DNA of 64,000 nt from Candidatus Helarchaeota archaeon (GCA_019058315.1 JAHPZH010000009.1:96001-160000); one strand, 5' to 3'. Shown: positions 2,509 to 55,419, numbered from the stretch's first letter. Program-made: numbers and translations. Notes: generated by a model from the letters alone, not told the origin.

Positions 2509-2610
2509 GCTGGGATAGCCAAGTGGTACGGCGCAGGCCTGGAGCTTCCTTTTAAAAGAAAGCCTGTGATTCTTTGAATCGCGAGGGTTCAAATCCCTCT
2601 CCCAGCGCCA
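2509..2610 (+). tRNA. tRNA-Ser(GGA) with a 16-nt intron at 37/38 (2545-2560)
   Basis: Acceptor GCTGGGA/TCCCAGC, G73 + encoded CCA, anticodon stem CAGGC/GCCTG, loop CT-GGA-G|A after intron removal, long variable arm GATTC/GAATC, T-arm GAGGG-TTCAAAT-CCCTC. Confidence 0.9.
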
Positions 2611-2684
2611 TTGTTATATATAATAAATTTACTTTTAAATAAGAAGATATAAATAAAAAACTATTAATTTAAAGCGTGTTATTT

Positions 2685-2802
2685 TTAACCTACTAGTTCT
2701 ATTTCTATAAAAACATCCTCTGGGACTCTTATCCTCATTATCTGTCTCATTGTCCTCTCATCGGCATCGATATCTATTAAACGTTTATGTAGACGCATTT
2801 CC
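2685..2802 (-). repeat. Tandem duplicate of the last 38 codons plus stop of rps10, synonymously recoded
   Basis: 2685-2801 aligns ungapped to 2810-2926 (period 125 nt); 15 differences in 117 nt, all synonymous; same peptide EMRLHKRL...IELVG*. Confidence 0.95.
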
Positions 2803-2809
2803 GATAATT

Positions 2810-3121
2810 TTAACCAACCAGTTCTATTTCTATAAAAACATCCTCTGGAACTCTAATCCGCATAATTTGCCTCATTGTCCTTTCGTCAGCATCAATGTCT
2901 ATTAAGCGTTTATGTAGACGCATCTCCCAGTGCTCCCACGTGGGGGTTCCCTCACCGCAGGGCGATTTTCTTACGGGAATGATTAATCTACGAGTTGGCA
3001 AAGGTACAGGACCCGCCATTTTAACTCCAGTTCGTGTTACAATCTCGGTTACTTGACTACACATCTCAAGCAATTTTGTAGAACTTGTTGAACTGAGACG
3101 TATTCGTGCTCTTTGTACCAT
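2810..3121 (-). CDS. rps10: 30S ribosomal protein S10 (uS10)
   Basis: [33 protein letters not shown]; follows EF-1a. Confidence 0.97.
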
Positions 3122-3188
3122 TTCTAATTATCACTAATATATTATTTTTTAATTTAAAAATAAAATTAAAAAGAAAAACTTTTTGTTT

Positions 3189-4508
3189 CTATTTCTTTTT
3201 CTCTTTCACTTTCTTTTTAAGGTCCATTACGACGCCCACAGCTATCGTTCTTCCCATATCACGGACTGCAAAGCGTCCAAGTTGTGGGAAATCGCTGAAT
3301 TTCTCAATGCACATTGGTTTCTTCGGTTTAAATTTAACCATGCCACCTTCATTCATTTTCAAGAAATCAGGTTTTTCTTGAAGTACTTGACCTGTTCGTG
3401 GATCTGTCTTTGTCATAATCTCTTCAAAAACACATGCAACTTGTGCAGTGTGAGCATGTACTACTGGTGCGTATCCTTGAGGAAGCACGGTCGGATGATA
3501 GATAACTACAATTTGACCTGTAAATTCGTCGGCTACAGTAGGCGGGGTTTTATTTGCATGTCCTAAAACCATACCTCTTCGTAAATCTTTAACTGGTATA
3601 CCTCGAATGTTAAAGCCAATATTGTCTCCTGGGATGGCTTGTTTGATTTGTTCATGATGCATCTCTATCGAACGAACTTCTGTGGTTATTTCTGGTGGCA
3701 TTATTATTATTTTGTCTGCGATTTTTAATACTCCTGTTTCAACTCTTCCTACGGGAACAGTACCTACTCCACTAATTTTGTAAACATCTTGAATAGGTAT
3801 TCTAAGGTCTTTATCAGTAGGTTTTGGTGGAACTTTTAAATTATCTAATGCATCTACAAGAGTAGGTCCTTTATACCATGGCATTTTATCGCTTTTTTTA
3901 GCTAAATTATCACCAGTCCAAGCACTCGTTGGAATAAATTCAACATCTTCTTTCTTGAACCTAATTTCTTCAAAAAGTAACCTCGAAATCTCGTTTTTGA
4001 CTTCATTAAATCGGTCTTCTTTCCAATCGACTGTAGCATCGTCCATTTTATTAACTGCTACTCTTACTTGTCCTACTCCTAAAGTTCGAGCTAAATATGC
4101 ATGTTCTATTGTTTGACCACCAGCTGAAATCCCTGCTTCGAATTCACCTTTTTTAGCGCTTACTACCAGAATTGCTGCATCAGCTTGAGAACTTCCAGTA
4201 ATCATGTTCTTAACAAAATCCCTGTGTCCAGGTGCGTCTATTAGAGTAAAATAATAGTTCTTAGTTTCAAATTTTCGGAACGCAAGATCGATGGTAATTC
4301 CACGTTCGCGTTCCTCCTTTAACCTATCAAATACAAAAGCATATTTCCATGAGGCTCTTTCTAGTTTTTTTGATTCATCTTCCAATTGACGCATTTCTCT
4401 GTCTGTAATTGCACCTGTCAGGATTAACAAGTGACCCATCATAGTGGATTTTCCGTGGTCGATATGACCTATTATGACCAGATTCATGTGCGTTTTTTTC
4501 TCGCTCAT
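3189..4508 (-). CDS. tuf: Translation elongation factor EF-1 alpha
   Basis: GHIDHGKST, RGITID, DAPGHRDF, NKMD, LGRFAVRDMG. Confidence 0.98.
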   Translation of the reverse strand: MSEKKTHMNLVIIGHIDHGKSTMMGHLLILTGAITDREMRQLEDESKKLERASWKYAFVFDRLKEERERGITIDLAFRKFETKNYYFTLIDAPGHRDFVKNMITGSSQADAAILVVSAKKGEFEAGISAGGQTIEHAYLARTLGVGQVRVAVNKMDDATVDWKEDRFNEVKNEISRLLFEEIRFKKEDVEFIPTSAWTGDNLAKKSDKMPWYKGPTLVDALDNLKVPPKPTDKDLRIPIQDVYKISGVGTVPVGRVETGVLKIADKIIIMPPEITTEVRSIEMHHEQIKQAIPGDNIGFNIRGIPVKDLRRGMVLGHANKTPPTVADEFTGQIVVIYHPTVLPQGYAPVVHAHTAQVACVFEEIMTKTDPRTGQVLQEKPDFLKMNEGGMVKFKPKKPMCIEKFSDFPQLGRFAVRDMGRTIAVGVVMDLKKKVKEKKK

Positions 4509-4709
4509 TTATTCACCTCGCGCAATAGCGCTTATTTTTTTAGCTAACATATATTGCTAGTATACTTTATTAATATAACTAGCATTTAAGAATTTTACAT
4601 TATTCGTGAGGGTAAAAAATATTTTACAATATTTAAGTTTTCTGGATATTATAACAATGGAAATTTAAAATGATTAAATAATCAGCAAAAATTGACCTTA
4701 ATGAGATGA

Positions 4710-5321
4710 TTATCGGGCAGATTGAGCTAATCTTTCGCGTTCTTCTTTCCTTTTTATTGCATGACTTTTAGTATCTCCGTTTGCGGTAAGTATTAGTTCT
4801 TCAGCAATAATTTCTTCTATTGTCAAGGGATTATTGAAACTTTTTCTGAAGCAACTTTCAACAAGATATTTCAATGCAAGATCTACTCTCCTCTGTGGAG
4901 CTATATCTACTGCTTGTTGATAAACTATTCCTCCATAACTTAGCCGCGTTGTTTCTTCACGCGGTGCTGCGTTTTCAATTGCTCTGACTAAGATTTCTAA
5001 TGGATTTCGAGATGTTCGAAGATGCATAATTTCAAATGAACTTTTAATGATGTTAATTGTCTTAATTTTCTTTCCTGAAAGTGAAGCGGGTTGTCTGCCA
5101 CCAATTTTTCTCTTGGAGAGTCCAGGGGTCATTAATCGATTGACAAACCGTTCTACGATATTAAGGTTAGATTTTCTAAATTTCTTATGTTCATGGCGAC
5201 CATGGCTATGACAAGTAAGTGTAGGTTTTAAATTAATATATCTTTCTAAACTTATATCTTTGATTTTTACGTCTTTAACATCCCATTTATCAAAGAATTT
5301 TATATCTTCCATTTTGTACAC
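4710..5321 (-). CDS. rps7: 30S ribosomal protein S7 (uS7)
   Basis: AIENAAPREE, AVDIAPQRRVDLAL, EERERLAQSAR. Confidence 0.97.
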   Translation of the reverse strand: MYKMEDIKFFDKWDVKDVKIKDISLERYINLKPTLTCHSHGRHEHKKFRKSNLNIVERFVNRLMTPGLSKRKIGGRQPASLSGKKIKTINIIKSSFEIMHLRTSRNPLEILVRAIENAAPREETTRLSYGGIVYQQAVDIAPQRRVDLALKYLVESCFRKSFNNPLTIEEIIAEELILTANGDTKSHAIKRKEERERLAQSAR

Positions 5322-5563
5322 TAATATCCTAATTTTAAATTCGCTTACTAATTGTGATAGATGAAAACTAAATATAATTTTAATTGATAAATAAGCCCTT
5401 ACTTTTTAAATTTGACTCCTAAATGAAGATTTTGAAAAAATTTTATTTTAAGCAGTATTATCAGATATACAATTGGGGTATTATTCTTGTAAGATGGAGA
5501 TATTAATAAGTAATATAATCAATTCACGTAGTTATTTTATTTAAAACCATGGAGTAAAACAAA

Positions 5564-5962
5564 ATGTCAAGTGAATTGATAGTTCCTAAATCAAAGTTAT
5601 TTAATAGGGTTTTATCTAAAATTATGGGCAATATTAAGAAAGGTAGTGTTATGCTATTAGATACTAATGGCTTCCGGATTGCTGAGATGAATAGTGATCG
5701 AACATATACAGACCAGTTTTGGGGATCAGCAAATAGAATTATAGATGCTGGAGAAAAAGTCTTAAAAGAATTAGGGCAAAGTAAGTTTAATCAAGTTTTT
5801 GAATCGGAATCATATTATCTAATGTGTGGTCCAGTTAACCAAGACATAAGTTACGCTATTTTATCAACTAAGGAAAAAATGTCCCTTGGAATGCTAAAGC
5901 TTCATGCACAATCACTTTGTAAAGACGTTCAAGACTTAGAACATGCTAAAGGATTTCTATAA
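5564..5962 (+). CDS. Roadblock/LC7 (profilin-like fold) protein
   Basis: Size and pattern (MLLDTNGFRIAE ... ILSTKEKMSLGMLKL) typical of roadblock domains common in Asgard archaea. Confidence 0.65.
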   Translation: MSSELIVPKSKLFNRVLSKIMGNIKKGSVMLLDTNGFRIAEMNSDRTYTDQFWGSANRIIDAGEKVLKELGQSKFNQVFESESYYLMCGPVNQDISYAILSTKEKMSLGMLKLHAQSLCKDVQDLEHAKGFL

Positions 5963-6011
5963 GTCTCTCTAATATTAACCATAATTAATGTAAAGCCAAT
6001 TTAACGTATTT

Positions 6012-6848
6012 TTAATCTGTCATTTGCTTTTTACATTGAGGGCAATAAATAGTTGATGGAGGGGATTGAAAATTACAATTAGAACAAGTTTTCCATGTAG
6101 GATACCAATTGAACAAATTCAAAATTAGTTTTTCATTATCTTTTGCTGGAATTCCTGACTTTTGATCATCAGTTAATAAAGCTTCACTACCTAATGCTGC
6201 TACTTTTCCTTTTCCATATTTAGTTATGCCCAAAACTGGAACACATGGTGGATTTGAAGTGGTATTAGAGAAAATTACGGGTTCTGCATTTAATGTAAGT
6301 GTTAAAGAGGCTGAACGGGGAAAAACCACATTGTATACATTTTTAGTAATAGGATGGTCTAACATAAGATTTAATAAAGGTGCCCAAGACCAAGTATCAG
6401 TGTCGGGATTAGCATGCATCTTCTTATCTTCTACAACATCATGAAAACTCAGACCAAACATGTTAGTTAATGCAAAGTTAAAATCTTTTTCAGTACCAAC
6501 ATACTCATTACCAACTAATAGCAACCCACGTCCTTCTTGTACAAATTGCCCTAAAGTTCGTAACTCGGTTGGTGTAAGAGTTGATGCACCAGTAGAACTC
6601 GCACCCATGACAAAAATATCAAATTCACGGAGAGCGGTATAATTTATCGGACCCTGAGTAAGTTTATTTACTGTAAAATTATTACTAGTTAAAATTAAAA
6701 GAAATCTTGAGCGCAGATCATTAACCCATTTATTTGGTTCCCGAGATTCATCAAATAAAACACGTAATTGTGGTCTTTTTACCTCTGATATCTCTTTTTT
6801 TTCCTCTTTTGCAGCAAAAAGTGGAATTTTTTGCTTATGAAGTACCAA
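6012..6848 (-). CDS. GIFT/DUF4350 (GldG/IFT52-like) domain protein with C-terminal zinc ribbon
   Basis: VLFDESRE, FVQEGRGLLLVG, YGKGKVAALGS...DNEKLILNLFNW; CxxC-x10-CxxC tail. Confidence 0.6.
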   Translation of the reverse strand: MVLHKQKIPLFAAKEEKKEISEVKRPQLRVLFDESREPNKWVNDLRSRFLLILTSNNFTVNKLTQGPINYTALREFDIFVMGASSTGASTLTPTELRTLGQFVQEGRGLLLVGNEYVGTEKDFNFALTNMFGLSFHDVVEDKKMHANPDTDTWSWAPLLNLMLDHPITKNVYNVVFPRSASLTLTLNAEPVIFSNTTSNPPCVPVLGITKYGKGKVAALGSEALLTDDQKSGIPAKDNEKLILNLFNWYPTWKTCSNCNFQSPPSTIYCPQCKKQMTD

Positions 6849-6909
6849 TTTTCAAAAACTCCAAAATAGTCAATCCATTACAAATTTAATAAGTTCCCTT
6901 TAATTAATC

Positions 6910-7926
6910 TTATTTTTCATGAAGTATGGCATATATTTTTAGGGGTTTTGCCATTTCTTTATTGATGATTAAAATTGACTCCTTATTTTGAATTCCAATT
7001 TTATTCAATTTGACATTATCATTCCGTATTATACCTTTTACAATAACCTTCATTGGTTCTTTAATGTCTAAAGTCATAATTAATCTATCTTTTAGGTCTC
7101 TAACTGTATCTCGTGGATCTACAGAAAAATCTACGCCCTTAATCCTATTTTTACCACAAACAATGCAATTTGAATTTTGATTTAACTTCATTAATGTAAA
7201 AGTCTGTGATAATCCATCATAGAACAAAAAATTATCTAACAATTTTCCTACTCCTAGGATTAATTTAACCGTTTCTTGTGCTTGAATTCCTCCTATGATT
7301 GTAGAAATAGTTAAAAGCGAGGGCATTTTAGGTGCTTTTTTAACTTTTTTGGTCTTTTTCCGTTTTTTTCCTGGAGGTGTACACGGTTTCTGTAATCTTT
7401 CTTGCGGTAGGAGTGGTTGACAATCGAGACAAGGAGTTTTAAATGGAATTACTACTTGTACATTTCCAAGCCAACCATACATTCCTCCATGAACGAGTGG
7501 TTTATTCTTATCTACACTTATAGAATTCAACCACCTTCTAGCTTCAAAAGTATCTAAACCATCAACTATTACATCAGACTCTTCATAGATTTTAGGATTA
7601 ACTTCCTGAATTTCTTTATTGAATGCAATAATTTCTACATCTGGATTTAAATCAATCAAATATTTTTGAGCTACTGTAACCTTTGATTTATTAATATCAG
7701 ATTCTTGAAAAAGCATCTGTCTAGATAAATTGGATTTTTCAATAGTATCAAAATCACAAATAATTAATTTACCAATACCCATTAAAACAAGGTCTAATGC
7801 AACAACACATCCAAGAGCACCCATACCTGCAATAAAAACTTTTCCATTTCGGATCTTTTGTTGATCCCACTCTTTTAATAGGATTTGCCGTTCATATCTA
7901 CTTTCTTTTCTTGCTTTTTTTGGCAA
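6910..7926 (-). CDS. Ubiquitin-activating E1-like enzyme (ThiF/UBA) with C-terminal ubiquitin-fold domain
   Basis: RYERQ, GMGALG, DFDTIEKSNLSRQ, TPCLDC...PCT (catalytic Cys), second CxxC, beta-grasp-like tail DTVRDLKDRL. Confidence 0.88.
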   Translation of the reverse strand: MPKKARKESRYERQILLKEWDQQKIRNGKVFIAGMGALGCVVALDLVLMGIGKLIICDFDTIEKSNLSRQMLFQESDINKSKVTVAQKYLIDLNPDVEIIAFNKEIQEVNPKIYEESDVIVDGLDTFEARRWLNSISVDKNKPLVHGGMYGWLGNVQVVIPFKTPCLDCQPLLPQERLQKPCTPPGKKRKKTKKVKKAPKMPSLLTISTIIGGIQAQETVKLILGVGKLLDNFLFYDGLSQTFTLMKLNQNSNCIVCGKNRIKGVDFSVDPRDTVRDLKDRLIMTLDIKEPMKVIVKGIIRNDNVKLNKIGIQNKESILIINKEMAKPLKIYAILHEK

Positions 7927-8107
7927 ATGTTCAACCCCTAAAGAAGAAAACTTATATTTTATGTTAAAAATCTAAATGTTGAAAATATATTTAACTTATT
8001 TATTCTAAGAGTTTAATGCTTAAAATAATCAGATTTTTTATAATAAATCAATGGCAAAACAAATTATGGAAGAATTTTCAAATTTAAATCCTATCTAAAT
8101 AAAAACC

Positions 8108-8578
8108 TTGGTGCAATCAATGCTCAGTGAAGAAGACTTCTATTCAAGGTTAGCAATAGAAGCAAAGATGATGGAAGAAGAAGAACCATCATTCAAACCA
8201 GTTGAAGGAGATTTAAAACGTTGGAAAGGTTTTATTTTAGGGACTAAAATATATGAAGGAGGAGTATTTGAAATAGAATTAATAGTTACTCGTAAATTTC
8301 CTTATATCCCTCCAAAGATTAGATGGTTAACTCCTGTCTGGCACCCAAATATAAGGGGAGAAAAGGTATGTGTAGGGATTTTGGGTAAAGATTGGAGTCC
8401 AACTATGAGTCTTACAGGAGTAGTAGAAGCACTAAGAAATCTGCTAAATTTTCCAAATCCGAATGATCCATTGAACAGAACAGCATCCCAGCAAATGAAA
8501 AGGCAGCCAAAGAAATTTGAACGCATAGTAAAGGAATATATCGAGAAAGAAGCGACGTGGGATCGAATTAAACAATAA
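8108..8578 (+). CDS. Ubiquitin-conjugating enzyme E2
   Basis: FPYIPPK, WHPNI...VCVGIL catalytic Cys, DWSP, PNPNDPLN. Confidence 0.93.
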   Translation: MVQSMLSEEDFYSRLAIEAKMMEEEEPSFKPVEGDLKRWKGFILGTKIYEGGVFEIELIVTRKFPYIPPKIRWLTPVWHPNIRGEKVCVGILGKDWSPTMSLTGVVEALRNLLNFPNPNDPLNRTASQQMKRQPKKFERIVKEYIEKEATWDRIKQ

Positions 8579-8621
8579 TTTTTAAAAATTTTATTAAATT
8601 AAGAAAAAAATTGATATTTAA

Positions 8622-8867
8622 TTATCCGCCTTCAGTTCTAGTGATTAAATAAAGTTTATCTAATTCACCAGCACCAATTTCTTTTAAAGTTTGATTTTCA
8701 TTTCTAATTTCACTACCACGAAATGCAAGGACAAAAATATTCGAGGGAATTCTTTTTCTTCGAGAAATTTCATTTTTAATTTGTTGGATTGATGTGTCAG
8801 GATTTAGATTCAGTTCTGTAACATCTCCTCCAATAGCAGAAACGACTTTAACTAACATATATCTCAC
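8622..8867 (-). CDS. Ubiquitin-like protein with free C-terminal GG
   Basis: About 80 aa beta-grasp pattern (DTSIQQIKNEI, LAFRGSEI, QTLKEIG), ends TEGG; lies between E2 and RING. Confidence 0.88.
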   Translation of the reverse strand: MRYMLVKVVSAIGGDVTELNLNPDTSIQQIKNEISRRKRIPSNIFVLAFRGSEIRNENQTLKEIGAGELDKLYLITRTEGG

Positions 8868-9003
8868 CCATTATGATTTTTTTAAATATTTTTTCAAATT
8901 TTATTATCATTTTCAAATTTTATACTTTTATTCAGTTTATTATATGAAAAAATAAAATAAATGGTTTTTGTAGTCGGCAACTAATTTAGATCATTTAAAC
9001 ACA

Positions 9004-9267
9004 TTAGATCGATAAAATATCAGATTGGCTTAAATTCTTACGACAAAGAGGACAAATTCCTTTTAATTTTATCCACTCTATAAGATGGTTTTCATGAGCT
9101 GGATTCCTACAATGCGGACAATATACTTTTTCATTTTTTTCTTCATCTTTAATTGGAAGAGCACATACCATACATTTTTCTACGATATTCCAATTCCATT
9201 CCCCGAGAAAAGTTGTTTTACCTATGATAAAACGGTCCCAATTTTTTTTATGCATAATACGAACCAT
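9004..9267 (-). CDS. Small RING-finger E3 ligase, Rbx1/Apc11-like N-terminus
   Basis: CxxC...CPHC-x4-H-x2-H...W...CPLC; RFxxxKxxxLxxWxWNIV before the RING. Confidence 0.8.
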   Translation of the reverse strand: MVRIMHKKNWDRFIIGKTTFLGEWNWNIVEKCMVCALPIKDEEKNEKVYCPHCRNPAHENHLIEWIKLKGICPLCRKNLSQSDILSI

Positions 9268-9373
9268 TTATTTTGTTTTTCCAGTTTTATTTAATAAATT
9301 ATTAAATAAATATTTTAAATTAAAGGAATAATTCGAGTATTGAATAAATTGATCTTAGTAATGTGATATTTTT

Positions 9374-9778
9374 ATGAGTACCGACGAAGATAAGATTTCA
9401 ATTGATATCGAGGTTATAGAAACACCTCGAGGCAAAGTTGTAAGCCTTGAAAGTATTAAAAATATTATAAATGCATTGAATTTATTAAATGTAGAGCTTA
9501 TTACATCTAATGAAAAAATTAATAATGAGGTTCTGAATGAAATGATAAATGTCGAAAGGGAATTAAAAGCTATTAGGAAGTTATTAGCTGAAAATACAAT
9601 AACACATGAAGCTTTAAAAGAAAATATCAGAGAAATGAAAGATGTTTTAAAAAGTAATCTAGATTCATTAAATACAAACTTTAAAAAATTATCAAATGAC
9701 TTTGAATCATTCGAGAAAAATATAGAAAGGAAAATAATTTCATCTTTAACCAAATTCATTCAGAGCTCAAAATCTTAA
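9374..9778 (+). CDS. Hypothetical coiled-coil protein
   Basis: ATG start, heptad-rich E/K/L sequence, codirectional with UEV gene. Confidence 0.7.
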   Translation: MSTDEDKISIDIEVIETPRGKVVSLESIKNIINALNLLNVELITSNEKINNEVLNEMINVERELKAIRKLLAENTITHEALKENIREMKDVLKSNLDSLNTNFKKLSNDFESFEKNIERKIISSLTKFIQSSKS

Positions 9779-9875
9779 TATCTAAAGTAAGGATCCCATT
9801 TGAAAAATATTATTAGAGTTCAATAGTTAAAGAATTTAGATTTTTTTTATTAATATAAGAAGGACAGAAAATCGG

Positions 9876-10550: not shown

Positions 10551-10606
10551 AATGGGTTTTTAGTAAATAAATTGGATTAATTAAAAACAAGAAGTTATAA
10601 AATTAA

Positions 10607-11437: not shown

Positions 11438-11445
11438 GCTAAAAA

Positions 11446-12627
11446 TTAAATTGCACCAAATTCATTGCCCCATTCAATGTATTTATTTAGTTCATCTTTT
11501 GCCACTGAAGATTTAATGTATTCTAATGTTTCTAAAAAGTCTTTTTGTTTAACTGGTCTTGGGTTCTCTGTTTCAATAAGATTACCACTAATGTCTAATT
11601 CTCTTATAGGTTTCATTATGCTTTCTCTACATATCAAAGCAATATCTGAACCTGAAAATTTATCTGTTTCTTTAGCAAGTTTATCAAAGTTAACATCTGT
11701 ATCCAATTCGACCCCTTTAGTATGTAATTTAAAAATTACAACACGTGCTTCATACTCAGGCATGCCTACATAAATTCTTTTCTCGAATCTTCTACGAAAT
11801 GCAGAATCTATTTCCCAAGGTCTATTAGTAGCACCTAATATTACAATTGCTTGCCCTCCACTTTTTAATCCATCAACTTCTTGAAGTAATTGGGTTTTAA
11901 TCCTTCTTTCACCACCGTGTTCACCACTATCACCTCTAGATGTGGCTATTGAATCAATTTCATCAATGAATATTAAAGAAGGTGAGTTTTCTCTAGCCAA
12001 TTCAAATAATTCTTTTACTAATTTCTCGGATTCTCCTAACCATTTTGAAACTAGTGAAGCTGCATCTGCATTGAAAAATGTAGCATTGCATTCATGAGCT
12101 ACAGCTTTAGCAATTAAAGTTTTACCACAACCTGGAGGGCCATATAATAAAATTCCTTTCCATGGACGTCTAGAACCTTTAAATAAATCTGGACGTAACA
12201 TTGGTAAAATAATAGCTTCTCTCAGAGCTTGTTTTGGGGCTTCTAAATTTGCAACATCCTCCCATTTTACATCAGGTTTCTCTGTTACTATTGTTTCGGA
12301 AACTGTACGTCTTAATTCCATATCTTCTTTGGTTGCAATTTTTTTTATAGGTTTTAAGGGTTTTTCAGATGGCTCAGTGCTTGTCCTAGGTCTGGGTACT
12401 TCATACTCATAAATTCCCCTAATTTCTTTTACTCTTTTTTGATATTGCTCAATCCTATCTAAACAAATATGCCTTAATTTTATATTCTTTGTGACTTTTG
12501 CGAATTCCATCAAAATTTCCATAGCTTCTATATAGTATCGACTTGCTTCATCATAATTCTCGTCATTATCGAGATCAACAGCTTTTTTTGCTTTGCTAAT
12601 ACCCATCTTAAAAGTTCTCATAGACAT
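11446..12627 (-). CDS. vps4: Vps4 AAA ATPase with N-terminal MIT domain
   Basis: MIT (AVDLD...A...Y), GILLYGPPGCGKT, LVSKWLGESEKLVK, FIDEIDS, RRRFEKRIY. Confidence 0.93.
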   Translation of the reverse strand: MSMRTFKMGISKAKKAVDLDNDENYDEASRYYIEAMEILMEFAKVTKNIKLRHICLDRIEQYQKRVKEIRGIYEYEVPRPRTSTEPSEKPLKPIKKIATKEDMELRRTVSETIVTEKPDVKWEDVANLEAPKQALREAIILPMLRPDLFKGSRRPWKGILLYGPPGCGKTLIAKAVAHECNATFFNADAASLVSKWLGESEKLVKELFELARENSPSLIFIDEIDSIATSRGDSGEHGGERRIKTQLLQEVDGLKSGGQAIVILGATNRPWEIDSAFRRRFEKRIYVGMPEYEARVVIFKLHTKGVELDTDVNFDKLAKETDKFSGSDIALICRESIMKPIRELDISGNLIETENPRPVKQKDFLETLEYIKSSVAKDELNKYIEWGNEFGAI

Positions 12628-34008: not shown

Positions 34009-34116
34009 TGGCGGACCCGGGGGGAATTTCGCCCAACTGCATATATCAATTGGGATTCGAACCCTCGATGTCCAACTTAGAAGGCTGGTGGTCTATCCTG
34101 GCTAACCTACGGGTCC
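34009..34116 (-). tRNA. tRNA-Arg(TCT) with a 30-nt intron in the T-loop (59/60; 34026-34055)
   Basis: Acceptor GGACCCG/CGGGTCC, G-CCA, anticodon arm CCAGC-CTTCTAA-GTTGG; BHB with helix TTCG/CGAA, bulges AAT and ATT, intron stem CCCAATTG/CAGTTGGG. Confidence 0.92.
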
Positions 34117-36031: not shown

Positions 36032-36032
36032 T

Positions 36033-41291: not shown

Positions 41292-41570
41292 TTAAACTTG
41301 AGATCTAACACGTTTAATTGTTCTAAAAGCCTTTTTTCCTTCATCAGTCATAGGTATCCAAGCTCCACCAGAAAAAACTATTTTACATTTTTTACAACGC
41401 CAGATTCCTATTGATATCCGCTTCACGGATTTTGTTCTACATTGAGGACATTTATGAGGTGCTTTCATCCTTTCTTCGACTTTTTTTACTCTTTTCCGAA
41501 CAATAGCACCATATCTTGGACCAAATCTTCCTGTAATTCCGACTTTTTTCGTTCTTCCCAATTTTATCAC
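41292..41570 (-). CDS. rpl37ae: 50S ribosomal protein L37ae (eL43)
   Basis: TKKVGITGRFGPRYG, CPQC, GIWRCKKC, GGAW. Confidence 0.96.
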   Translation of the reverse strand: MIKLGRTKKVGITGRFGPRYGAIVRKRVKKVEERMKAPHKCPQCRTKSVKRISIGIWRCKKCKIVFSGGAWIPMTDEGKKAFRTIKRVRSQV

Positions 41571-41606
41571 TTATTGAATTTGAAGGAAATTTTCACTTAA
41601 TTAATT

Positions 41607-42419
41607 TTAGGGTAGGTATTGAAATAATTCTTTCGATTTTTCTAATGTAATCTCAACACATTTTATAATTTCGTCTTTAGTAAAAATACCTTCTCTACCT
41701 TTTTGTATGCTACAAATATTTCCAGATTCATCTACTGTAATTGTAATGCGTGCATCCATTATGCGATCCTCTTGTTCATTTGGATCAACCAGCAATTTAT
41801 CTCCTATCTTTGCTATTGTAACTGAAACTGCTTTATTGGAAAATGGGAGGGATAACCAATCTGCTTTTTTGTATTGTTCACCTAAAACTTCCACTTTATT
41901 ATCAACAATCTCAGTCCTTGGCATTTTTGCAGAAAGTAAAGCTGCCACTCCTGCTAATGTTCCCGCATCAAACATATTTCCATCATAAGATAAAACATAT
42001 AAATCAATAAAAATGATAAAAACTTGTTCGCCAGGAATTAAGCATAATTTAGAATAATCTACTATTTCTGAATGACGAATTCCTCTGTCAACTACACGTG
42101 CAACCTCAACAGAATCTTCATTTGGTGGTCCTGGTTCGAATATAGGGGATGCAAGAGCTGTAAGCTCGGCATTAACAGTGATTACTCCCCTATCAGGAGT
42201 ATCTGGAAATGGAGGTCCAAGTGAAATCTTTACACCTGCAATAATATCTGTATTTCCAATTTTAACACGTGCTGACCCCTCAGCTTTTAGTATTACATCT
42301 GTCTCTACAGATATTTTTCGATAATCTAAAAAATTCCTTCCGTCTATTCTCTGATCCTTTTTTACTAGAGAATTTATATGAGATTTTTCAATTTCAGAAA
42401 TAATTTTAAAAGATTCCAT
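41607..42419 (-). CDS. rrp42: Exosome complex subunit Rrp42
   Basis: RIDGR, AEGSARVKIG, PFPDTP, FEPGPP, ARVVDRGIR, DGNMFD. Confidence 0.96.
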   Translation of the reverse strand: MESFKIISEIEKSHINSLVKKDQRIDGRNFLDYRKISVETDVILKAEGSARVKIGNTDIIAGVKISLGPPFPDTPDRGVITVNAELTALASPIFEPGPPNEDSVEVARVVDRGIRHSEIVDYSKLCLIPGEQVFIIFIDLYVLSYDGNMFDAGTLAGVAALLSAKMPRTEIVDNKVEVLGEQYKKADWLSLPFSNKAVSVTIAKIGDKLLVDPNEQEDRIMDARITITVDESGNICSIQKGREGIFTKDEIIKCVEITLEKSKELFQYLP

Positions 42420-43233
42420 TATATATCCTCCTCCTTTGATATTTCAGTTTCAATTTCTTTATCAAGTTGACTATATTTTCCCTTTATCGTCTGAATTTGA
42501 ATTTCATTTAATTTTTCAATTCCTTTTTCAGCAATATCCAAGGCTTTACGCATTTCATCAAATGTTATTTGACCATCAAATTGCAAAAGTGTATATGATT
42601 TAGATCGTGGCATCATTGCAATTGGTAAATCTCCCAAACCTTCTTTATCTTCAACATCCGATAAATCTAGAACTAATGTGGGTGGATCAGGATTTGCAAT
42701 TTTACCTACTGCTACACCACAAACAAGGTCGCGTAATGATATTCCAGCATCCGCTAGAGCTAAAGAAGCCGCAGTAACCGCAGCACAACGTGTACCACCA
42801 TCTGCACAAAGGACTTGGATAAAAACATCTATTATAGTTTTTGGATAATATTCAAGAAATATTGATGATTCCAAAGCTTGTCGTAAAATTAGCGAAAGTT
42901 CGACTTCCCTTCTAGATGGGGCAGGAGATTTTCTCTCATCTACTTTATTCCAAATTATTCACTCGGTATAATTTAAGCGAACGTAGCCATGCGATAAAGT
43001 ACTCGCAAAACTGCCGCATCTTGACGGGCTAAATGACGAGGGTGAACTTCACGTGGTCCATAAACTGCGACCAAAATTTTATTCTTTCCCATATTTATTA
43101 AAGCAGAACCATCTGCTTTTGTTAATAATCCCATCTCCATTGAGACTGGTCTTAATTCATCATATTTCCTATTATCTGTTCTTATTCCATCCCTAATTAA
43201 CCAATCAGCTGGGACTTGTTTAAAAAGTGCCAT
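42419..43233 (-). CDS. rrp41: Exosome complex subunit Rrp41, two exons (43233-42977 and 42944-42419), about 260 aa after splicing
   Basis: Exon 1 ADGSA...VYGPRE...YRMATF; exon 2 VDERKSPAPSRREVELS...ADGGTRCA...ED..G.GD; removing 42945-42976 joins them in frame. Confidence 0.92.
42945..42976 (-). other. 32-nt bulge-helix-bulge intron in rrp41 mRNA
   Basis: Exon stem CTAC/GTAG, central helix GTTC/GAAT, bulges GC|T and AA|A, intron stem TAAATTAT/ATAATTTG. Confidence 0.88.
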
Positions 43234-44756: not shown

Positions 44757-44773
44757 ATTTATCTGATCTACTT

Positions 44774-48352: not shown

Positions 48353-49303
48353 TCATCCCACATTTAATTTCATCGCATCTAATGTAATTTGTGCTAAGTT
48401 TTTCTTAATTTCTAAATTCTTCATTAAAGTATTAGTAATTATTACTTTAATTCCTAATTTTTCAATTTCACTTTTTCTATCTTTATCAATTTCATCAATA
48501 ACAAATGTCTTAATCAAGTTTTTATAGAATTTTGCTACGCCAAAACAAGAAACTTCCATTCCTAAACCCTTCATGAGCCTATCAAGAGGTCCTTTTACTG
48601 GTTTATTTCCTATTATTGGACTTATTCCAATAATTGGTTTATCAATTTGTTCTAAAGCCAATTTAATTTCCTTAATGGATAAAATAGTATTTATACTCAC
48701 AAGTGGATTACTAGGACCTATTAATATCCCTTCAGCATTCTTAATTATATCCAATATCCCATTTGTAGGTTTAGCATCTTCAGCTCCCTCATAAATAATT
48801 TCTAAAACTTTATCTTGTGCTTTTCTCTCAATCATATATTCTTCAAAATGAATAATACCATCTGGAGTTCTAATTTTGGTCATGACCTTTTGATTAGTCA
48901 TTGGAATTAAATTTACTTCAACTCCAAGATGTTGACATAATTTTTTAGTAATTTCAGAAAGTTTTAACCCCGATTTTAATAAATTAGTTCTATAAATATG
49001 CGTTGCTAAATCTTTATCTCCCAGTTTAAACCATGTATCTTGTTTATACCTACTTAGCATTTCTAGGCAATTTGTAGTATCATTATCTATTCCCCAACCT
49101 TGCATTTTATCTACAATTCCAGAAAGAGTATACATAATTATATCTAAATCTGGTGAGATTGAAAGACCATATAGCTCAAAGTCATCAGCTGTATTTACTA
49201 TAACGTATAAATCTTTTGGGTTCACTATTTGAACCAATCCTTGGAGAAATCTTGCCGCACCTACTCCACCGGCTAAAACTACAATCAAACAGATTGCCCC
49301 CAT
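48353..49303 (-). CDS. cofD: 2-phospho-L-lactate transferase
   Basis: LAGGVGAARF, ISPDLD, WFKLGDKDLATH, GPSNPLVSI. Confidence 0.94.
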   Translation of the reverse strand: MGAICLIVVLAGGVGAARFLQGLVQIVNPKDLYVIVNTADDFELYGLSISPDLDIIMYTLSGIVDKMQGWGIDNDTTNCLEMLSRYKQDTWFKLGDKDLATHIYRTNLLKSGLKLSEITKKLCQHLGVEVNLIPMTNQKVMTKIRTPDGIIHFEEYMIERKAQDKVLEIIYEGAEDAKPTNGILDIIKNAEGILIGPSNPLVSINTILSIKEIKLALEQIDKPIIGISPIIGNKPVKGPLDRLMKGLGMEVSCFGVAKFYKNLIKTFVIDEIDKDRKSEIEKLGIKVIITNTLMKNLEIKKNLAQITLDAMKLNVG

Positions 49304-49902
49304 TTATTTTTAAAAGTAATTTTTTTAATTTCTATCCTTGAAGGCGGTGAAGGGGTTTCATCTGGATAACCAACTGTTATAAAAGCTTGAGGATCATGGT
49401 CTTTAGGTATACCCAATACTTTACGAACTATATCCTGACAAAATAATGGAGCACAATACCAACAGCACCCAAAACCATTTGTATAACTGACTAAGAGAAA
49501 ATTTTGTATTGCTGCACTTACACTTTGGATTGCCATAATATATTCTGCATTTTGTCTTTTTTTATCAGGATATTTATGCATTCTTTCCATTGATAGACAT
49601 GGGATTAAGATAATTGGTGCTGCTGTAAATTTTCTGATTGATTCTTCAATAATATCTTTTCTAGATGGCTCTGCAATTTGATCTTTTTCTAGATCGTTCT
49701 CATATTCTTCTGCCATTTTTTTAACTAATTCAGATTTTACTTGAGGATCTTCGATAATTAAAAAATAATATGGCATTGCATTATGTGCTGAAGGTGCCCA
49801 AATAGAAAATTCTAGAATTTCTACTATTTTAGAAATATCAATTGGGTTTTTTTTATATTTTCTAATACTTCTTCTTAATTTTATTACATCTTTTATATCC
49901 AA
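49285..49902 (-). CDS. Nitroreductase family protein (FbiB C-terminal-like)
   Basis: RRSIRKY, WAPSAHN, AAIQNFLL, CWYCAPLF, GYP; start placed at TTG 49902. Confidence 0.85.
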   Translation of the reverse strand: MDIKDVIKLRRSIRKYKKNPIDISKIVEILEFSIWAPSAHNAMPYYFLIIEDPQVKSELVKKMAEEYENDLEKDQIAEPSRKDIIEESIRKFTAAPIILIPCLSMERMHKYPDKKRQNAEYIMAIQSVSAAIQNFLLVSYTNGFGCCWYCAPLFCQDIVRKVLGIPKDHDPQAFITVGYPDETPSPPSRIEIKKITFKNKWGQSV

Positions 49903-50080
49903 TATTAAAAACCCCAATAGTAAAAGGTCATTAAACTTGAATAAAAAAAAATTTTTAAAAATATTTAACGTCAAAAATCCAAATTTTCAATAATCTGATT
50001 TAAAAAATGAGTAAAAAAGCATATTTTATTATTTAATTCCCCTATTTTATTAAATTTAAATCAATTTAGATCAAAATTAG

Positions 50081-50149
50081 GGATCAAATCGTCGCAGAGC
50101 TCATCATCAGTGTTGGATTTTTTCAGCTTGGGGCGACGATATCATTTCC
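50081..50149 (-). ncRNA. Candidate box C/D guide sRNA (D' guide complementary to the 23S rRNA P-loop, Gm2251 equivalent)
   Basis: GC-rich island in AT-rich intergenic DNA: GGA-A-ATGATAT(C)...CTGA(D')...ATGATGA(C')...TTGA(D)-TCC; guide GTCGCCCCA. Confidence 0.55.
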
Positions 50150-50306
50150 GAGTTATATTTTATTATCTTTAAATTTAAAAATTACGTAATTACGCGCTAT
50201 AAATAAAAAAACTCTGAAATGCAAAAAAAGAATTTTGCAAAAAACATTTAAAATCATATTAATTGGGAAATATAAATTAAAAATGAAAAGTCCAGAGGTA
50301 AGTTTT

Positions 50307-51400
50307 ATGGTAAAGACTGGAATAATATATCATGAAGATTATTTAAAACATGATACTGGAGATCATGTTGAAAATAAAAAAAGATTGATTGCCACTTTGG
50401 ATTTATTTAATGAATACAAAATTTTTGAGCATCCTAATATCATTAAGATTTCCCCAAATCCAGCATCTATTAAGGAAATTCAAAGAGTTCATAAAGCATT
50501 TTATATAGAAAAAGTCCGGGAAAAATGTTTAAGTGGTGGGGGCTGGCTTGATGCTGATACAATTGTCTCTCCAGATAGCTACAATGTTGCATTATTAGCT
50601 GCTGGAGGAGCAATACAAGCAGGTGAGATGGCTGTAAAAGGTAAAATTGACAATGCTTTTTGTTTAATACGTCCTCCAGGACATCATGCCGGACCAGGGG
50701 TTGCTAGAGGATTTTGTGTATTTAATAATATTGCCATTGTTGCAAAATCTTTAATTGCGAGGTTTGAAGAGGTCAATAAAGTCTTAATATTTGACCACGA
50801 TGCACATTAAAAAAGAAATTTTCTTTTTTAAGCATATACGCAGGTAATGGAACCTCGCAAATTCTATATAACGATCCAAATGTGCTATTATTTGATTTTC
50901 ACCAACATCCGCGAACACTCTATCCTGGAACAGGTTATATAGATGAAATAGGTGAGGAAGAAGGAAAGGGATATAATATAAATTTACCTATGGTTCCCCG
51001 TGCTGGTGATGCTCAATATCTAGAAGTTATTGATGAATTATTCATTCCAATTATTAATCAATTTAAACCTGATATTGTTCTAGTTTCAGCAGGATTTGAT
51101 ACTCATTTTTCTGATCCCATTACACAACTCAATATAACAATTCAAGGATATGGAGAAATCGTTAAAAAAATAAAAAAAGAGGCAAAAAAAGTCTGTGCTG
51201 GGAAAATTATAATTATGCTTGAGGGTGGATATGATTTAAAAGCACTATCTCAGGGAATTCTAACTGAAATATCTGTACTTGGAGATTTAGGTATTGAATT
51301 TATAGAAAATCCTCCTAAAATTGAAGAAGCTATAGTAGATTACAATAGAAAAATGATAGATAAATTAAAAGAAGTTTTAGGTGCTTATTGGAAATTTTAA
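50307..51400 (+). CDS. Histone deacetylase family (HDAC/AcuC) protein, two exons (50307-50805 and 50838-51400), about 353 aa after splicing
   Basis: HVE...RL, RPPGHHA, GFCVFNN, spliced DHDAHAGNGT, YPGTG, SAGFDTH, LEGGY. Confidence 0.92.
50806..50837 (+). other. 32-nt bulge-helix-bulge intron in HDAC mRNA
   Basis: Central helix ATGC/GCAT, bulges AC|A and AT|A, intron stem TTAAAAAAGA/TCTTTTTTAA, exon pairing CG/CG plus ACC/GGT. Confidence 0.88.
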
Positions 51401-51438
51401 ATAATTGAGAAATATAGACTTTGGAGAATTTTAAATAA

Positions 51439-53067
51439 ATGTTTGAAATTATTGGGAGAGATGGTGCGGGGAGGTTAGGAAAATTAAAAACTGCTCATGG
51501 GACTATTTATACACCTGAATTTATGCCAGTATACAATCATAATCATCCGACAGTTCCAATTGATGATTTTGAAAAAATGAATGTTAATATTTTAATTACA
51601 AATGCCTATATAATAAACCGAACTCCCGAATTAAAAGAGATTGCTGAGAAAGGAATTCATAAATTAATAGATTTCAATAAAATAATTATGACAGATTCTG
51701 GAGCTTATCAAGCATGGATGTATCAAAAAGAGCTTGAAATTACAAATAAAGAAATTATCAATTTTCAAGATAAACTTCAACCAGACATTGCAACAATTTT
51801 AGATTTTTTTACAGAAACCAATTCATATTCTATTGCGAAAGAAGGTGTAGAAAAAACTATTAAAAATGCAAAAGAATGTATAAAAATTAGAAAAAAGGAT
51901 TCAAAGATTCTTTGGGCTGCACCAATTCAAGGAGGTCAGTTTCTAGATTTATTGGGGTATTGTGCAGAAGAATTATCTAAACTTGATTTTGATTTTCACC
52001 CCTTAGGAACACTCGCACCCGCACTACTTAATTATAATTTTAAAAAAGTAGCTGAAACAATTGCAGTAACAAAAAAGTATTTAATTCCATCAAGACCATT
52101 ACATGCATTTTCAATTGGACATCCGATCTTTTTTTCATTAGCAGTAGCTCTAGGAGCTGATTTATTTGATTCTTCTTCCTATGCTTTATTCGCAAAAGAA
52201 AATAGATACTTAACAGTAAATGGTACTTTAAGACTCGAAAATATAATATCAGAATTTCCTTGTTCTTGTCCAATTTGTTTAAAATTTACTCCGGAAGAGT
52301 TAAAAAGTAAAGAAAAATTAGAAAAGGAAAAATTGTTAGCTAAACATAATTTATATGTGTGTTTAGAGGAGATGAAACGAATCAGATTTGCTATTAGGGA
52401 AGGTAAGTTATGGGACTTAATTCAAATAAGAATTCAGTCCCATCCTAGATTAGCAGAAGCTTATTATCATGTAATTAACAAATATAAAGAGCTCCTAGAA
52501 CGCTTCGAGCCATTAACCAAACATTCTGCGATTTTCATTACAGATTCAAGTTCTTTAAACCGTCCAGAAGTATTTCGCTACCAAGAAAACTTAAAAAAAT
52601 ATTATCAAGTCCCAAAAAGTGTAAAATATTTAATTCTATTGCCAGATTTAAGGAATATTTTATTCTATAATAAGAAATTTCAGAATATTCAAAATACAAT
52701 CAACGAAATTACTGAAAAAAATAGACCATATTTTCAAATATGTCTAATATCACCCGTATTTGGAATTATTCCAGAAGAATTAAAAGAAATATATCCCCTA
52801 TCGCAATTTGTTTATTCTCAAATAATCAATATGGATTTCATTATCCATAATCAACAAATTATTGAACAATTTATTACTCGTCATAAGAAAAATTATGAAG
52901 AAATAGTATTATACAGACCAAAAGAATTATTCATGGAAGATATAAATAAATCTTTACTGAGTAACCTTACAATAAATAAAATATCTACCGAAATTAAGGT
53001 AGCTATTGTAAATGATGAAGTTCAACTATATGAAAAAATTAAAAAATTAAATCAAAATAAATTTTAG
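51439..53067 (+). CDS. tgtA: Archaeosine tRNA-guanine(15) transglycosylase
   Basis: GRLGKL.T, MTDSGAYQ, PIQGG, DLFDSSSY, PCSCPIC, HNL. Confidence 0.93.
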   Translation: MFEIIGRDGAGRLGKLKTAHGTIYTPEFMPVYNHNHPTVPIDDFEKMNVNILITNAYIINRTPELKEIAEKGIHKLIDFNKIIMTDSGAYQAWMYQKELEITNKEIINFQDKLQPDIATILDFFTETNSYSIAKEGVEKTIKNAKECIKIRKKDSKILWAAPIQGGQFLDLLGYCAEELSKLDFDFHPLGTLAPALLNYNFKKVAETIAVTKKYLIPSRPLHAFSIGHPIFFSLAVALGADLFDSSSYALFAKENRYLTVNGTLRLENIISEFPCSCPICLKFTPEELKSKEKLEKEKLLAKHNLYVCLEEMKRIRFAIREGKLWDLIQIRIQSHPRLAEAYYHVINKYKELLERFEPLTKHSAIFITDSSSLNRPEVFRYQENLKKYYQVPKSVKYLILLPDLRNILFYNKKFQNIQNTINEITEKNRPYFQICLISPVFGIIPEELKEIYPLSQFVYSQIINMDFIIHNQQIIEQFITRHKKNYEEIVLYRPKELFMEDINKSLLSNLTINKISTEIKVAIVNDEVQLYEKIKKLNQNKF

Positions 53068-53091
53068 AAAATAGAAAATGGAGTAATTGAA

Positions 53092-53538
53092 ATGAGTCAG
53101 ACGGCTGAAAGCCGATTTTTTAAAGAAATGGCAGGTTTATTAAACGCTAAAGTAAAAGTTATTACTTCAGATAAAATCTATGAAGGTACGTTATTAGGAT
53201 GGGATCGGAAAAGTATGAGTGTCTGTTTAGGTTCTGCCGAAGATGATGAAGGGCGTGAATATCCTAAAATAATTATATATGGCAATACGATTTTGGAACT
53301 AATCGAGACAGGTAGGGCTTTTGACTTAAAAGCACTATCAGAAGATCTGGCAAAATTGTTTCCAAAAGGTGAAGTTCAATATAGCCCTGAAGCTCGTGTA
53401 ATAATGGTTCTTAATAAAATCAAAGTAACCGAATTTGGTGTAGAAGGATCCGGTCCTTTAGCTGAAAGAATACGTAATGTTTATGAGAGATTTCTTGAAG
53501 AACACGAAAGTGAAGTTGAAATAGAAGAAGAAGTATGA
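53092..53538 (+). CDS. Lsm/SmAP3-like protein (Sm domain plus C-terminal domain)
   Basis: YEGTLLGWD Sm1 motif; C-terminal [17 protein letters not shown]. Confidence 0.85.
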
Positions 53539-53554
53539 AATCATAAAGGAATTT

Positions 53555-55237
53555 ATGATGTCTAGACTAACCGGTAAACCTGTCCTCATCTTAAAAGAAG
53601 GAAGCAAGAGAATTTCAGAACAGGATGCACTTAGGGTAAATATTTCTGCTGCCAGAACACTGGCTAATGCAGTTAAAAGTACTTTGGGGCCTAAAGGAAT
53701 GGATAAAATGTTAGTTGATAGACTTGGTGGAATTATTATTACAAATGACGGAGCTACGATATTAGAAGAAATGGATGTTCAACATCCTGCAGCAAAAATG
53801 ATGGTAGAAATAGCAAGAGCTCAAGATGACGAGGTAGGGGATGGGACAACAACAGCTGTAATTATTGCCGGAGAACTTCTTCGACGTGCTGAATTCTTAT
53901 TAGATTTAAAATTACATCCTACAACAATAATTAGAGGATTTAAAAAAGGGCTGGAAAAAGTAAAAGAAATTCTTGAATCTCTCTCAATTAATGTCGATAT
54001 TGATAAAGATACACAAATTTTAAAACAAGCTGCCATGACATCCTTAAATAGCAAATCTATCTCTGGAGTTAAAGAATTATTTGCTGATATTTGTTTCAAT
54101 GCGGCAAATCAAGTAAAAGAATTACGATCTAATAAGAATTTTGTAGATATAGAAAGAATTCAAATCATAAAAAGACAAGGAAAAAGCTTATCGGATTCAA
54201 AATTAATAGATGGAATTATTATTGAGGATCAAATTGTCCATCCTTTAATGCCTAAAAAGATTGAAGACGCTAGAATATGTATACTAGACTTACCTCTTGA
54301 ACTTGAAAAAACAAAATTTGACGCCGAATTAAGATTCACTGACCCATTAGAAATGAAAAAATATCATATCGAAGAAGAAGAGATATTGAAACACTATGTT
54401 CAAAAAATTAAAGAATCAAATGCAAACGTTGTTTTTTCAAAAAAAGGTATTAATGATATTTCTCAACATTATTTGGTATCAAATAATATAATTGGTATTA
54501 GGCGAATCAAAAAGAAAGCAATGGAAAAATTAGCGAAGGCAACTGGTGCTAGAATAGTCTCAAATATTGAAGATCTAACTGAAGATGATATTGGACAGGC
54601 TAGGATAGTTGAAGAGCAATTAATCGGAAATAAAAAGATAATCTTTATTAAAGGTTGTAAAAATCCAAAAGCTGTTTCTATCCTCTTAAGAGGGGGTGTC
54701 GATAATCTTCTAGACGAAGCCGAAAGAGCTCTAAATGATGCTCTTTGTGTTGTTAGGGATATTTTATTTGAAAATAAAATAGTAATTGGTGGAGGAGCAA
54801 TAGAAGTAGAGATTGCAAAATTGCTTAGAGAATTTGCTTCTTCAATAGGAGATAAAGAACAATTGACTATAGAAATTCTAGCTGACAGTATAGAAATGAT
54901 TCCAAAAATATTAGCACAAAATGCCGGTTTTGATCCTATTGATAAAATTTTACAACTTAGGTCAATCCATAGCCAAGAAAATAATAAATATTATGGAATT
55001 AATGTTTTTAATGGTAAAATTGAAGATATGAAAGAAAATGGAGTTATTGAACCATATTCTGTTAAAATGCAAGAAATAAAATCTGCCGTTGAAGCAGCTT
55101 CAATGATTCTAAGAATTGATGATGTAGTGGCTGCTAAATTAATTTCCCCAGAAGCTAAGGCAGGAATGCCAACGGGACCATTATCTGGAATGGGTGGAAT
55201 GCCACCTGGAATGGGCGGAATGCCGCCAGGTATTTAA
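53555..55237 (+). CDS. ths: Thermosome (group II chaperonin) subunit
   Basis: [36 protein letters not shown]-rich tail. Confidence 0.97.
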
Positions 55238-55258
55238 AAAAATTCTTTATATAGAATA

Positions 55259-55419
55259 GCTCCGGTAGTGTAGACGCAAATTAACGAAAATCTTGCGACA
55301 AAATCCGGTCAAGCATAAAGGGCTCTCGTTTATACGTAATTTTACTATAAAAAGAAACCCTTCGGCTGCTAATTTATTAGCAGGAGGAAACCCGGGTCCG
55401 AATCCCGGCCGGAGCACCA
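55259..55419 (+). tRNA. tRNA-Glu(CTC) with three introns: 15/16 (55274-55303), 37/38 (55329-55356), 45/46 (55365-55389)
   Basis: Removing three hairpin inserts gives GCTCCGGTAGTGTAGTCCGGTCAAGCATAAAGGGCTCTCGACCCTTCGACCCGGGTCCGAATCCCGGCCGGAGCACCA, a complete cloverleaf. Confidence 0.9.

Follow-up and report, generated by a model that had tools for sequence, protein, structure and literature searches.

Predicted bulge-helix-bulge introns of the tRNA type in protein-coding genes of an Asgard archaeon

In a 64,000-nt stretch of a Candidatus Helarchaeota genome (G000:C10:96001-160000, where G000 denotes the assembly GCA_019058315.1 and C its contigs; hereafter "the window" means this whole stretch), seven short inserts interrupt three tRNA genes and two protein-coding genes, rrp41 and an HDAC-family deacetylase gene. 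We conclude, with a probability of roughly 85%, that these inserts are archaeal bulge-helix-bulge (BHB) introns that are cut out by the splicing endonuclease EndA and whose exons are joined by RtcB, and that at least seven other protein genes of the genome are interrupted in the same way. The tRNA-splicing enzymes of this archaeon would thus most likely splice mRNAs as well. An earlier, sequence-only reading of the window had assigned five inserts to the genes for tRNA-Ser, tRNA-Arg and tRNA-Glu, a sixth to rrp41 and a seventh to the HDAC gene. All seven were found at the positions it gave, and its bounds coincide with the start of the first intron (2545) and the end of the last (55389).

The two interrupted protein genes carry the main evidence. 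The rrp41 gene lies between rrp4 and rrp42 and is read as two open reading frames (ORFs) in different frames. The parts of both genes are as follows, with BHB geometry given here and below as outer helix/central 4-bp helix/inner hairpin:

42977..43233, minus strand: rrp41 exon 1, 85 codons plus 2 nt, phase-2 junction; Pfam RNase_PH positions 1-59
42945..42976, minus strand: rrp41 intron, 32 nt; strict BHB, 4/4/8
42419..42944, minus strand: rrp41 exon 2, through the stop codon; RNase_PH positions 48-129
50283..50805, plus strand: HDAC-family deacetylase exon 1, phase-1 junction; Hist_deacetyl positions 1-152
50806..50837, plus strand: HDAC intron, 32 nt; strict BHB, 2/4/11
50838..51400, plus strand: HDAC exon 2, through the stop codon; Hist_deacetyl positions 153-295

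The predicted fold of the rrp41 intron consists of an outer helix CUAC/GUAG, a central helix GUUC/GAAU and an 8-bp hairpin, with bulges GC^U and AA^A (^ marks the cut). The HDAC intron has a central helix AUGC/GCAU, bulges AC^A and AU^A, and an A/U hairpin of 9-11 bp. Each insert brings a stop into the frame of exon 1 and shifts the frame by +2. After excision at the canonical cuts, rrp41 encodes a 260-aa Rrp41 with the junction …YRMATF-A-VDERK…, and the HDAC gene encodes a 361-aa deacetylase with the junction …DHDA-H-AGNGTS…. Both spliced junctions aligned gap-free with the uninterrupted gene at the loci fetched from relative genomes (29/29 for rrp41 and 29/29 for HDAC), and the rrp41 site was uninterrupted, with no insert, in all 80 metagenome relatives. 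At the rrp41 junction the sister genus reads …STFAVDERKSPAPSRREV, compared with …ATFAVDERKSPAPSRREV in the predicted splice, and exon 2 is 66% identical to the sister-genus orthologue. In the HDAC gene, the three closest relatives read DHDAHAGNGTS or DHDVHAGNGTS, the same as the predicted splice. At the junction residue itself, the closest orthologues have the same amino acid (Ala in Rrp41, His in HDAC). Moving both cuts one nucleotide earlier would replace the conserved Ala by Glu (rrp41) or the metal-binding His by Tyr (HDAC), so that homology favours cleavage at precisely the canonical positions.

These features also bear on the idea that the inserts stay in the mRNA, either through ribosome bypass of the phage T4 gene 60 type or as programmed premature stops that give truncated proteins, which we consider very unlikely. 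A stop does occur within one or two codons of the 5' junction and is followed by a hairpin, superficially like the gene 60 element. However, the take-off and landing codons differ in both genes (GCU versus AAA in rrp41, CAU versus UAC in HDAC), and a bypass element of this type was rejected because identical flanking codons are found at neither mRNA insert. Bypass would also leave unexplained the 4-bp helix, the 3-nt bulges and the occurrence of the same geometry in tRNA genes, and a truncated Rrp41 of 86 aa would miss most of the RNase PH domain.

An intact second rrp41, which the sequence-only reading had named as evidence that would count against splicing, was sought in the genome and was not found. 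Matches to the family PF01138 fall in three genes: rrp42, the interrupted rrp41 and one for an RNase PH of bacterial type (240 aa, ~30% identical). This third gene (C3:499595-500314, outside the window) was rejected as a second rrp41, as it is a separate bacterial-type paralogue and nearly all relatives keep one beside an intact rrp41. A scan of HDAC exon 2 against the genome contigs returned distant HDACs only.

Both mRNA inserts were recovered from independent strains. Logan contigs came from three runs that belong to two further studies, distinct from the likely source (X2 and X3 in one, X6 in the other), and these contigs are 97-98% identical to the window. The rrp41 intron was bridged gap-free by contigs of X2, X3 and X6, and the HDAC intron by contigs of X2 and X3. 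The rrp41 intron differs between strains at one position only, 42964, a loop base of the hairpin where runs X2 and X3 have C>T. The only strain change in the HDAC intron is a 2-nt deletion at 50822, at the hairpin tip, which leaves a 30-nt intron with a 9-bp stem (run X2, a sediment metagenome); an indel of 2 nt would be tolerated there only in an untranslated segment. Of the 11 differences between strains in the rrp41 exons, six are synonymous and five swap residues within I/V/L or A/T; they occur both before and after the intron. The independent contigs, together with mostly synonymous or conservative exon changes, therefore indicate that the inserts are real and inherited and that the genes are under purifying selection. 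Among the relative genomes and metagenome contigs searched, neither insert was present beyond these ~97%-identical strains.

It follows from the same contigs that inserts lacking support in DNA, a second outcome that the earlier reading had said would speak against it, were not what was found. The assembly is derived from a metagenome, with an estimated contamination of 6.6%, and the inserts could on this ground be assembly or sequencing artefacts of a single metagenome bin. We give this explanation next to no probability, because the introns recur gap-free in contigs of two other studies with strain-level differences, and because coverage is uniform, at ~19-20x, in the probable source run.

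The tRNA genes of the window show the same kind of interruption. ARAGORN found no tRNA in the raw, unspliced window. Rfam reported a single match above threshold, tRNA-Ser at 2509-2607 (RF00005, 52 bits), and a sub-threshold match at 34042-34116 (23.8 bits) in which the acceptor stem fails and which corresponds to the unspliced tRNA-Arg; the unspliced tRNA-Glu was missed by both programs. After excision of the five inserts, ARAGORN called tRNA-Ser(GGA), tRNA-Arg(TCT) and tRNA-Glu(CTC), all with normal cloverleaves:

2509..2610, plus strand: tRNA-Ser(GGA) gene, CCA encoded; Rfam RF00005, 52 bits; ARAGORN after excision of 2545-2560
2545..2560, plus strand: tRNA-Ser intron at 37/38, 16 nt; relaxed, central helix in the canonical register only 2/4
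34009..34116, minus strand: tRNA-Arg(TCT) gene including CCA; weak Rfam match (23.8 bits); ARAGORN after excision
34026..34055, minus strand: tRNA-Arg intron at 59/60 (T-loop), 30 nt; strict BHB, 3/4/8
55259..55419, plus strand: tRNA-Glu(CTC) gene including CCA, three introns; ARAGORN after excision of the three inserts
55274..55303, plus strand: tRNA-Glu intron at 15/16 (D-loop), 30 nt; relaxed BHB, 0/3/5
55329..55356, plus strand: tRNA-Glu intron at 37/38, 28 nt; BHB 5/3/5
55366..55389, plus strand: tRNA-Glu variable-loop intron at 46/47, 24 nt; central helix 4/4, 7-bp hairpin

In the variable-loop intron of tRNA-Glu the 5' bulge is just 2 nt and the outer helix is absent. Its position is counted here as 46/47, a numbering detail in which we depart from the 45/46 given earlier. 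The proposal that six of the seven inserts share one architecture holds loosely by measured BHB geometry: three are strict, whereas the other three are relaxed. Outside the window, a segment of 4.3 kb at C3:627500-631800 contains ~20 matches to the tRNA model, several of them 105-148 nt long. It is a dense tRNA gene array, and the length of these matches indicates that many of its members bear introns.

Further interrupted protein genes were found elsewhere in the genome. A scan for strict BHB motifs combined with ORF merging nominated three genes beyond those of the window, and a later listing added PAC2. Seven genes were added in all, and in each of them the junction after splicing either aligns gap-free with uninterrupted orthologues or gives contiguous Pfam coordinates:

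C6:81229-81259: EF-2 paralogue intron, 31 nt; GTP_EFTU positions 2-79 before and 82-151 after the intron
C6:64108-64136: RNase Z intron, 29 nt; …FDCGE^GTQ…, compared with FDAGEGTQ in four relatives
C5:499169-499201: HTH-CBS regulator intron, 33 nt, with an in-frame stop; SQSLIAR^IETG, compared with SQSLIARIEAG
C6:32233-32261: HAD hydrolase intron, 29 nt; DLDGT^I
C1:81769-81794: PAC2 intron, 26 nt; exon 2 begins at profile position 14; relatives uninterrupted
C6:38360-38375: intron of a Cys-rich small protein, 16 nt; junction gap-free against three relatives
C6:232831-232857: intron of an aconitase-family (leuC-like) large subunit, 27 nt, with in-frame stops; Pfam positions 20-129 before and 130-305 after the intron

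The aconitase-family proteins of relatives are 426-437 aa long and uninterrupted. With rrp41 and HDAC, nine protein genes were thus validated. Their inserts measure 16-33 nt. The length is a multiple of three in two of them, which contain in-frame stops, and not in the other seven. Five of the nine introns lie on C6 and two on C10; these contigs account for ~9% of the assembly and hold many genes for translation and RNA processing. The clustering may reflect a bias to highly expressed genes, or chance.

The intron of the EF-2 paralogue was also found in the sister genus (G001), at the identical site DTPGH^VD (L188:1834-1866 on G001:C23). It is 33 nt long there, compared with 31 nt here, and has the geometry 4/4/8, compared with 4/4/10. 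The hairpin sequences are unrelated, the sister-genus stem being a perfect 8 bp. Both introns end in …AA and have the same flanking exon sequence, and the central-helix strand reads GACC in G001 and GACU here. Conservation of structure despite changes in length and sequence is what a spliced BHB intron would be expected to show, and this conservation across genera comes from one pair, that of the EF-2 paralogue. The EF-2 intron is absent from the genomes of two neighbouring families. The other eight mRNA introns were not found in G001 or in the other relatives searched (the HTH-CBS gene itself was not found in G001), which indicates gains specific to the G000 lineage. A BHB scan over 711 kb of relatives' loci returned the EF-2 intron of G001 and no other.

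The enzymes for such splicing, whose presence the sequence-only reading had proposed as a check, are encoded in the genome. The EndA domain PF01974 occurs twice (C12:5149-5700 and C1:331414-332016), and RtcB (PF01139) once (C5:272272-273732). One EndA, of 184 aa, has N- and C-terminal domains and, by motif reading, the catalytic residues Tyr, His and Lys; its 201-aa paralogue is apparently without the catalytic His. This pair suggests that EndA is an alpha-beta heteromer here, a type with broad specificity.

In the mechanism that we propose, the pre-tRNAs and the rrp41 and HDAC pre-mRNAs would fold locally into a helix, a 3-nt bulge, a 4-bp helix, a second 3-nt bulge and a hairpin. The splicing endonuclease, here probably a heteromer of the catalytic EndA and the apparently non-catalytic paralogue, would cut after the second nucleotide of each bulge, and RtcB would join the exons and probably circularise the intron. 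Removal of the 32 nt, with their in-frame stop and +2 frameshift, would yield the full-length Rrp41 and deacetylase, and the same process would act in the other interrupted protein genes.

The number of such introns in the genome was approached from structure. In this AT-rich genome, a strict BHB occurs at 1.15e-4 of random pairs of site and length (16-36 nt), and chance therefore cannot account for nine exact coincidences. Three whole-genome, structure-first scans for strict BHB motifs with ORF merging were performed (on long ORFs, with short ORFs allowed, and with a codon-usage filter and relaxed geometry), taking half of the out-of-phase count as the null. In all three, the in-phase count was about equal to the null (for example 346 versus 329.5 and 474 versus 428.5), so that a structure-first scan can nominate introns and cannot count them. 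Five other top nominees were tested. Four are ordinary boundaries between genes, as Pfam shows complete domains on each side: C5:382681 (MCR gamma and a Fer4 protein), C11:32465 (two tandem glutaredoxins), C11:67660 (Fer4 and an AIR synthase-related protein) and C11:422918 (SCP2 and a 1666-aa WD40 protein). The fifth, C11:748086, has a Pfam match on neither side. The extrapolation from two mRNA introns per 64 kb to many genome-wide (~180) is thus not borne out, as the scans equal the null and nine cases validate; the genome probably contains about ten to a few tens of such introns.

The view that the introns are actively spreading found no support in the sequence data. In BLAST searches against the 5.8-Mb genome, each intron matched itself and nothing else, in agreement with the earlier statement that the inserts share structure and not sequence, both with each other and with the rest of the genome. 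The lack of related copies gives no pointer to a currently mobile element; moreover, the examined strains carry the two mRNA introns of the window, and one intron is shared between genera. What is shown at the level of sequence is lineage-specific gain. The claim that endonuclease-type introns have entered essential mRNAs is upheld in silico by the BHB motifs, the exact restoration of proteins, the enzymes and the single-copy rrp41, whereas density and spreading had been overstated.

The same comparisons dispose of other classes of element. A mobile DNA insertion, such as a miniature inverted-repeat transposable element or one derived from an insertion sequence, was rejected on the BLAST result. 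Group I and group II self-splicing introns were rejected because the inserts are 16-33 nt long, compared with hundreds of nucleotides for a ribozyme core, and no Rfam intron family is present in the window.

Several observations weigh against our interpretation. The rrp41 BHB is not the minimum-free-energy fold of its 56-nt context (-5.5 versus -10.1 kcal/mol); for HDAC, the EF-2 paralogue and PAC2, the minimum-free-energy fold includes the BHB. The outer helix of the HDAC intron is weak, with 2 bp only. The tRNA-Ser intron does not have the strict BHB motif, its central helix being 2/4, and two of the three tRNA-Glu introns depart from the strict motif as well. The subunit composition of EndA is read from motifs in its two paralogues. 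There is no statistical excess of frame-restoring BHBs genome-wide, and the case is made by nine individually validated loci. Finally, a search of sequencing runs listed no RNA run that contains the window DNA; splicing is read here from DNA alone, with cleavage and ligation in vivo inferred from it.

This last point would equally suit an explanation in which the interrupted genes are recent pseudogenes, produced by insertion of small hairpin DNA with no repair at the RNA level and with paralogues covering the lost functions. HDAC, EF-2 and aconitase do have paralogues in the genome, and the inserts are A/T-rich inverted repeats, as such an origin would have it. We nevertheless regard it as quite unlikely. 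For all nine inserts, cutting the BHB at the canonical positions restores the exact protein, at a chance of ~1e-4 per site; rrp41 has no second copy to cover for it; the exons are otherwise free of lesions, with strain changes that are mainly synonymous or conservative; and no insert has repeated copies. The EF-2 insert, furthermore, persists across two genera with intact exons and with a BHB that has been restructured and is still perfect.

The genome that carries these introns comprises 5.79 Mb in 12 contigs, with ~30% G+C. An actin-family gene (E = 4e-134), Vps4 and the exosome/proteasome superoperon, the last two in the window, show that it fits an Asgard archaeon, and its actin homologue, the ESCRT protein Vps4 and the MCR gamma subunit mark the host family as Helarchaeales-like. 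In the window, a ThiF/E1-like enzyme adjoins a protein with a weak match to the IFT52 GIFT domain at 6012-7926, and the Vps4 gene (MIT, AAA and Vps4_C domains) lies at 11446-12627; the ThiF/E1-like/IFT52-like pair and Vps4 are eukaryote-like signature genes. Outside the window, the MCR gamma subunit is complete at C5:381788-382678 (Pfam MCR_gamma 1-246, E = 4e-91) and is followed by a 4Fe-4S protein, which suggests an alkyl-CoM reductase system of the Helarchaeales-like kind. An open frame of 1666 aa at C11:417919-422916, also outside the window, consists almost entirely of WD40 beta-propeller repeats. Two sub-threshold Rfam matches in the window, at 60480-60508 to a family of CRISPR repeats (E = 2.2) and at 41493-41572 to a family of C/D-box snoRNAs (E = 1.7), are probably due to chance.

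The window also contains cbf5, the gene in which an archaeal mRNA intron of this type was described:

861..1889, plus strand: cbf5, uninterrupted 342-aa ORF; Pfam DKCLD, TruB_N, TruB_C_2 and PUA

No intron was found in it, the single ORF carrying all the domains, as the sequence-only reading had stated. In Crenarchaeota, the cbf5 pre-mRNA contains a short BHB intron within the coding sequence that is removed by the tRNA splicing endonuclease (Watanabe et al. 2002; Yokobori et al. 2009, PMC2738675). The present system resembles it in that the crenarchaeal intron occurs in lineages whose EndA is heteromeric and of broad specificity, and has been gained and lost in a lineage-specific manner. It differs in that the crenarchaeal case concerns one gene in one phylum, whereas at least nine unrelated genes are interrupted here, in an Asgard host whose cbf5 is intron-free. 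In 2020, cbf5 was still given as the sole example of a coding-region BHB intron (PMC7714728). Schwarz et al. (2020, PMC7714728) showed, both in vivo and in vitro, that EndA processes a BHB intron in the 5' untranslated region of the HVO_1309 mRNA of Haloferax volcanii. Since that intron lies in an untranslated leader, the reading frame does not depend on it, whereas those described here lie within conserved domains, where they shift the frame or introduce stops.

Asgard tRNA genes are known to be rich in introns, with several short introns at non-canonical positions (Valentin-Alvarado et al. 2024, PMC11291895; bioRxiv 10.64898/2026.10.13.758758). The five tRNA introns of the window are of this published kind: like those of this genome, the published ones are mostly BHB introns, in lineages with two EndA paralogues, and were gained repeatedly in a lineage-specific manner. 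Both reports treat tRNA genes only, and introns in protein genes are added here; in the second (bioRxiv 10.64898/2026.10.13.758758) the word mRNA is absent and the single use of "protein-coding" refers to neighbouring genes. A literature search of partial coverage, not extending to all journals, found neither BHB introns in Asgard mRNAs nor coding-region BHB introns in archaea outside crenarchaeal cbf5.

Eukaryotes offer a functional parallel. The splicing of XBP1/HAC1 by IRE1 and RtcB, and mRNA cleavage by TSEN, likewise use a protein-only endonuclease with a ligase; a short intron is removed, the frame is changed, and in animals the ligase is RtcB. IRE1, however, recognises paired stem-loops and not BHB motifs, is unrelated to EndA, and acts as a regulated stress switch in one mRNA. 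Both systems would be protein-only mRNA splicing, with no homology or descent shown, and the link to eukaryotic or IRE1-type splicing is one of analogy only. It does not follow from the finding that spliceosomal or IRE1-type splicing descended from the archaeal system.

It is likely, in our judgement, that EndA/RtcB splicing extends from tRNA and rRNA to about ten or more mRNAs, including those of the core genes for the exosome subunit Rrp41 and RNase Z, in one Asgard family, that the introns were gained repeatedly and at least one was kept across genera by selection on RNA structure, and that this is the first archaeon in which many proteins depend on splicing. At least nine unrelated genes that need endonuclease/ligase splicing, several of them housekeeping genes, would mean that BHB introns can colonise mRNAs generally, given a permissive endonuclease. 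Some means of keeping ribosomes off unspliced transcripts is implied, in a cell without a nucleus. Annotation pipelines will mis-call such genes as pseudogenes or split ORFs. For the closest prokaryotic relatives of eukaryotes, these genes would provide a natural system in which to study how intron gain in protein genes is tolerated.

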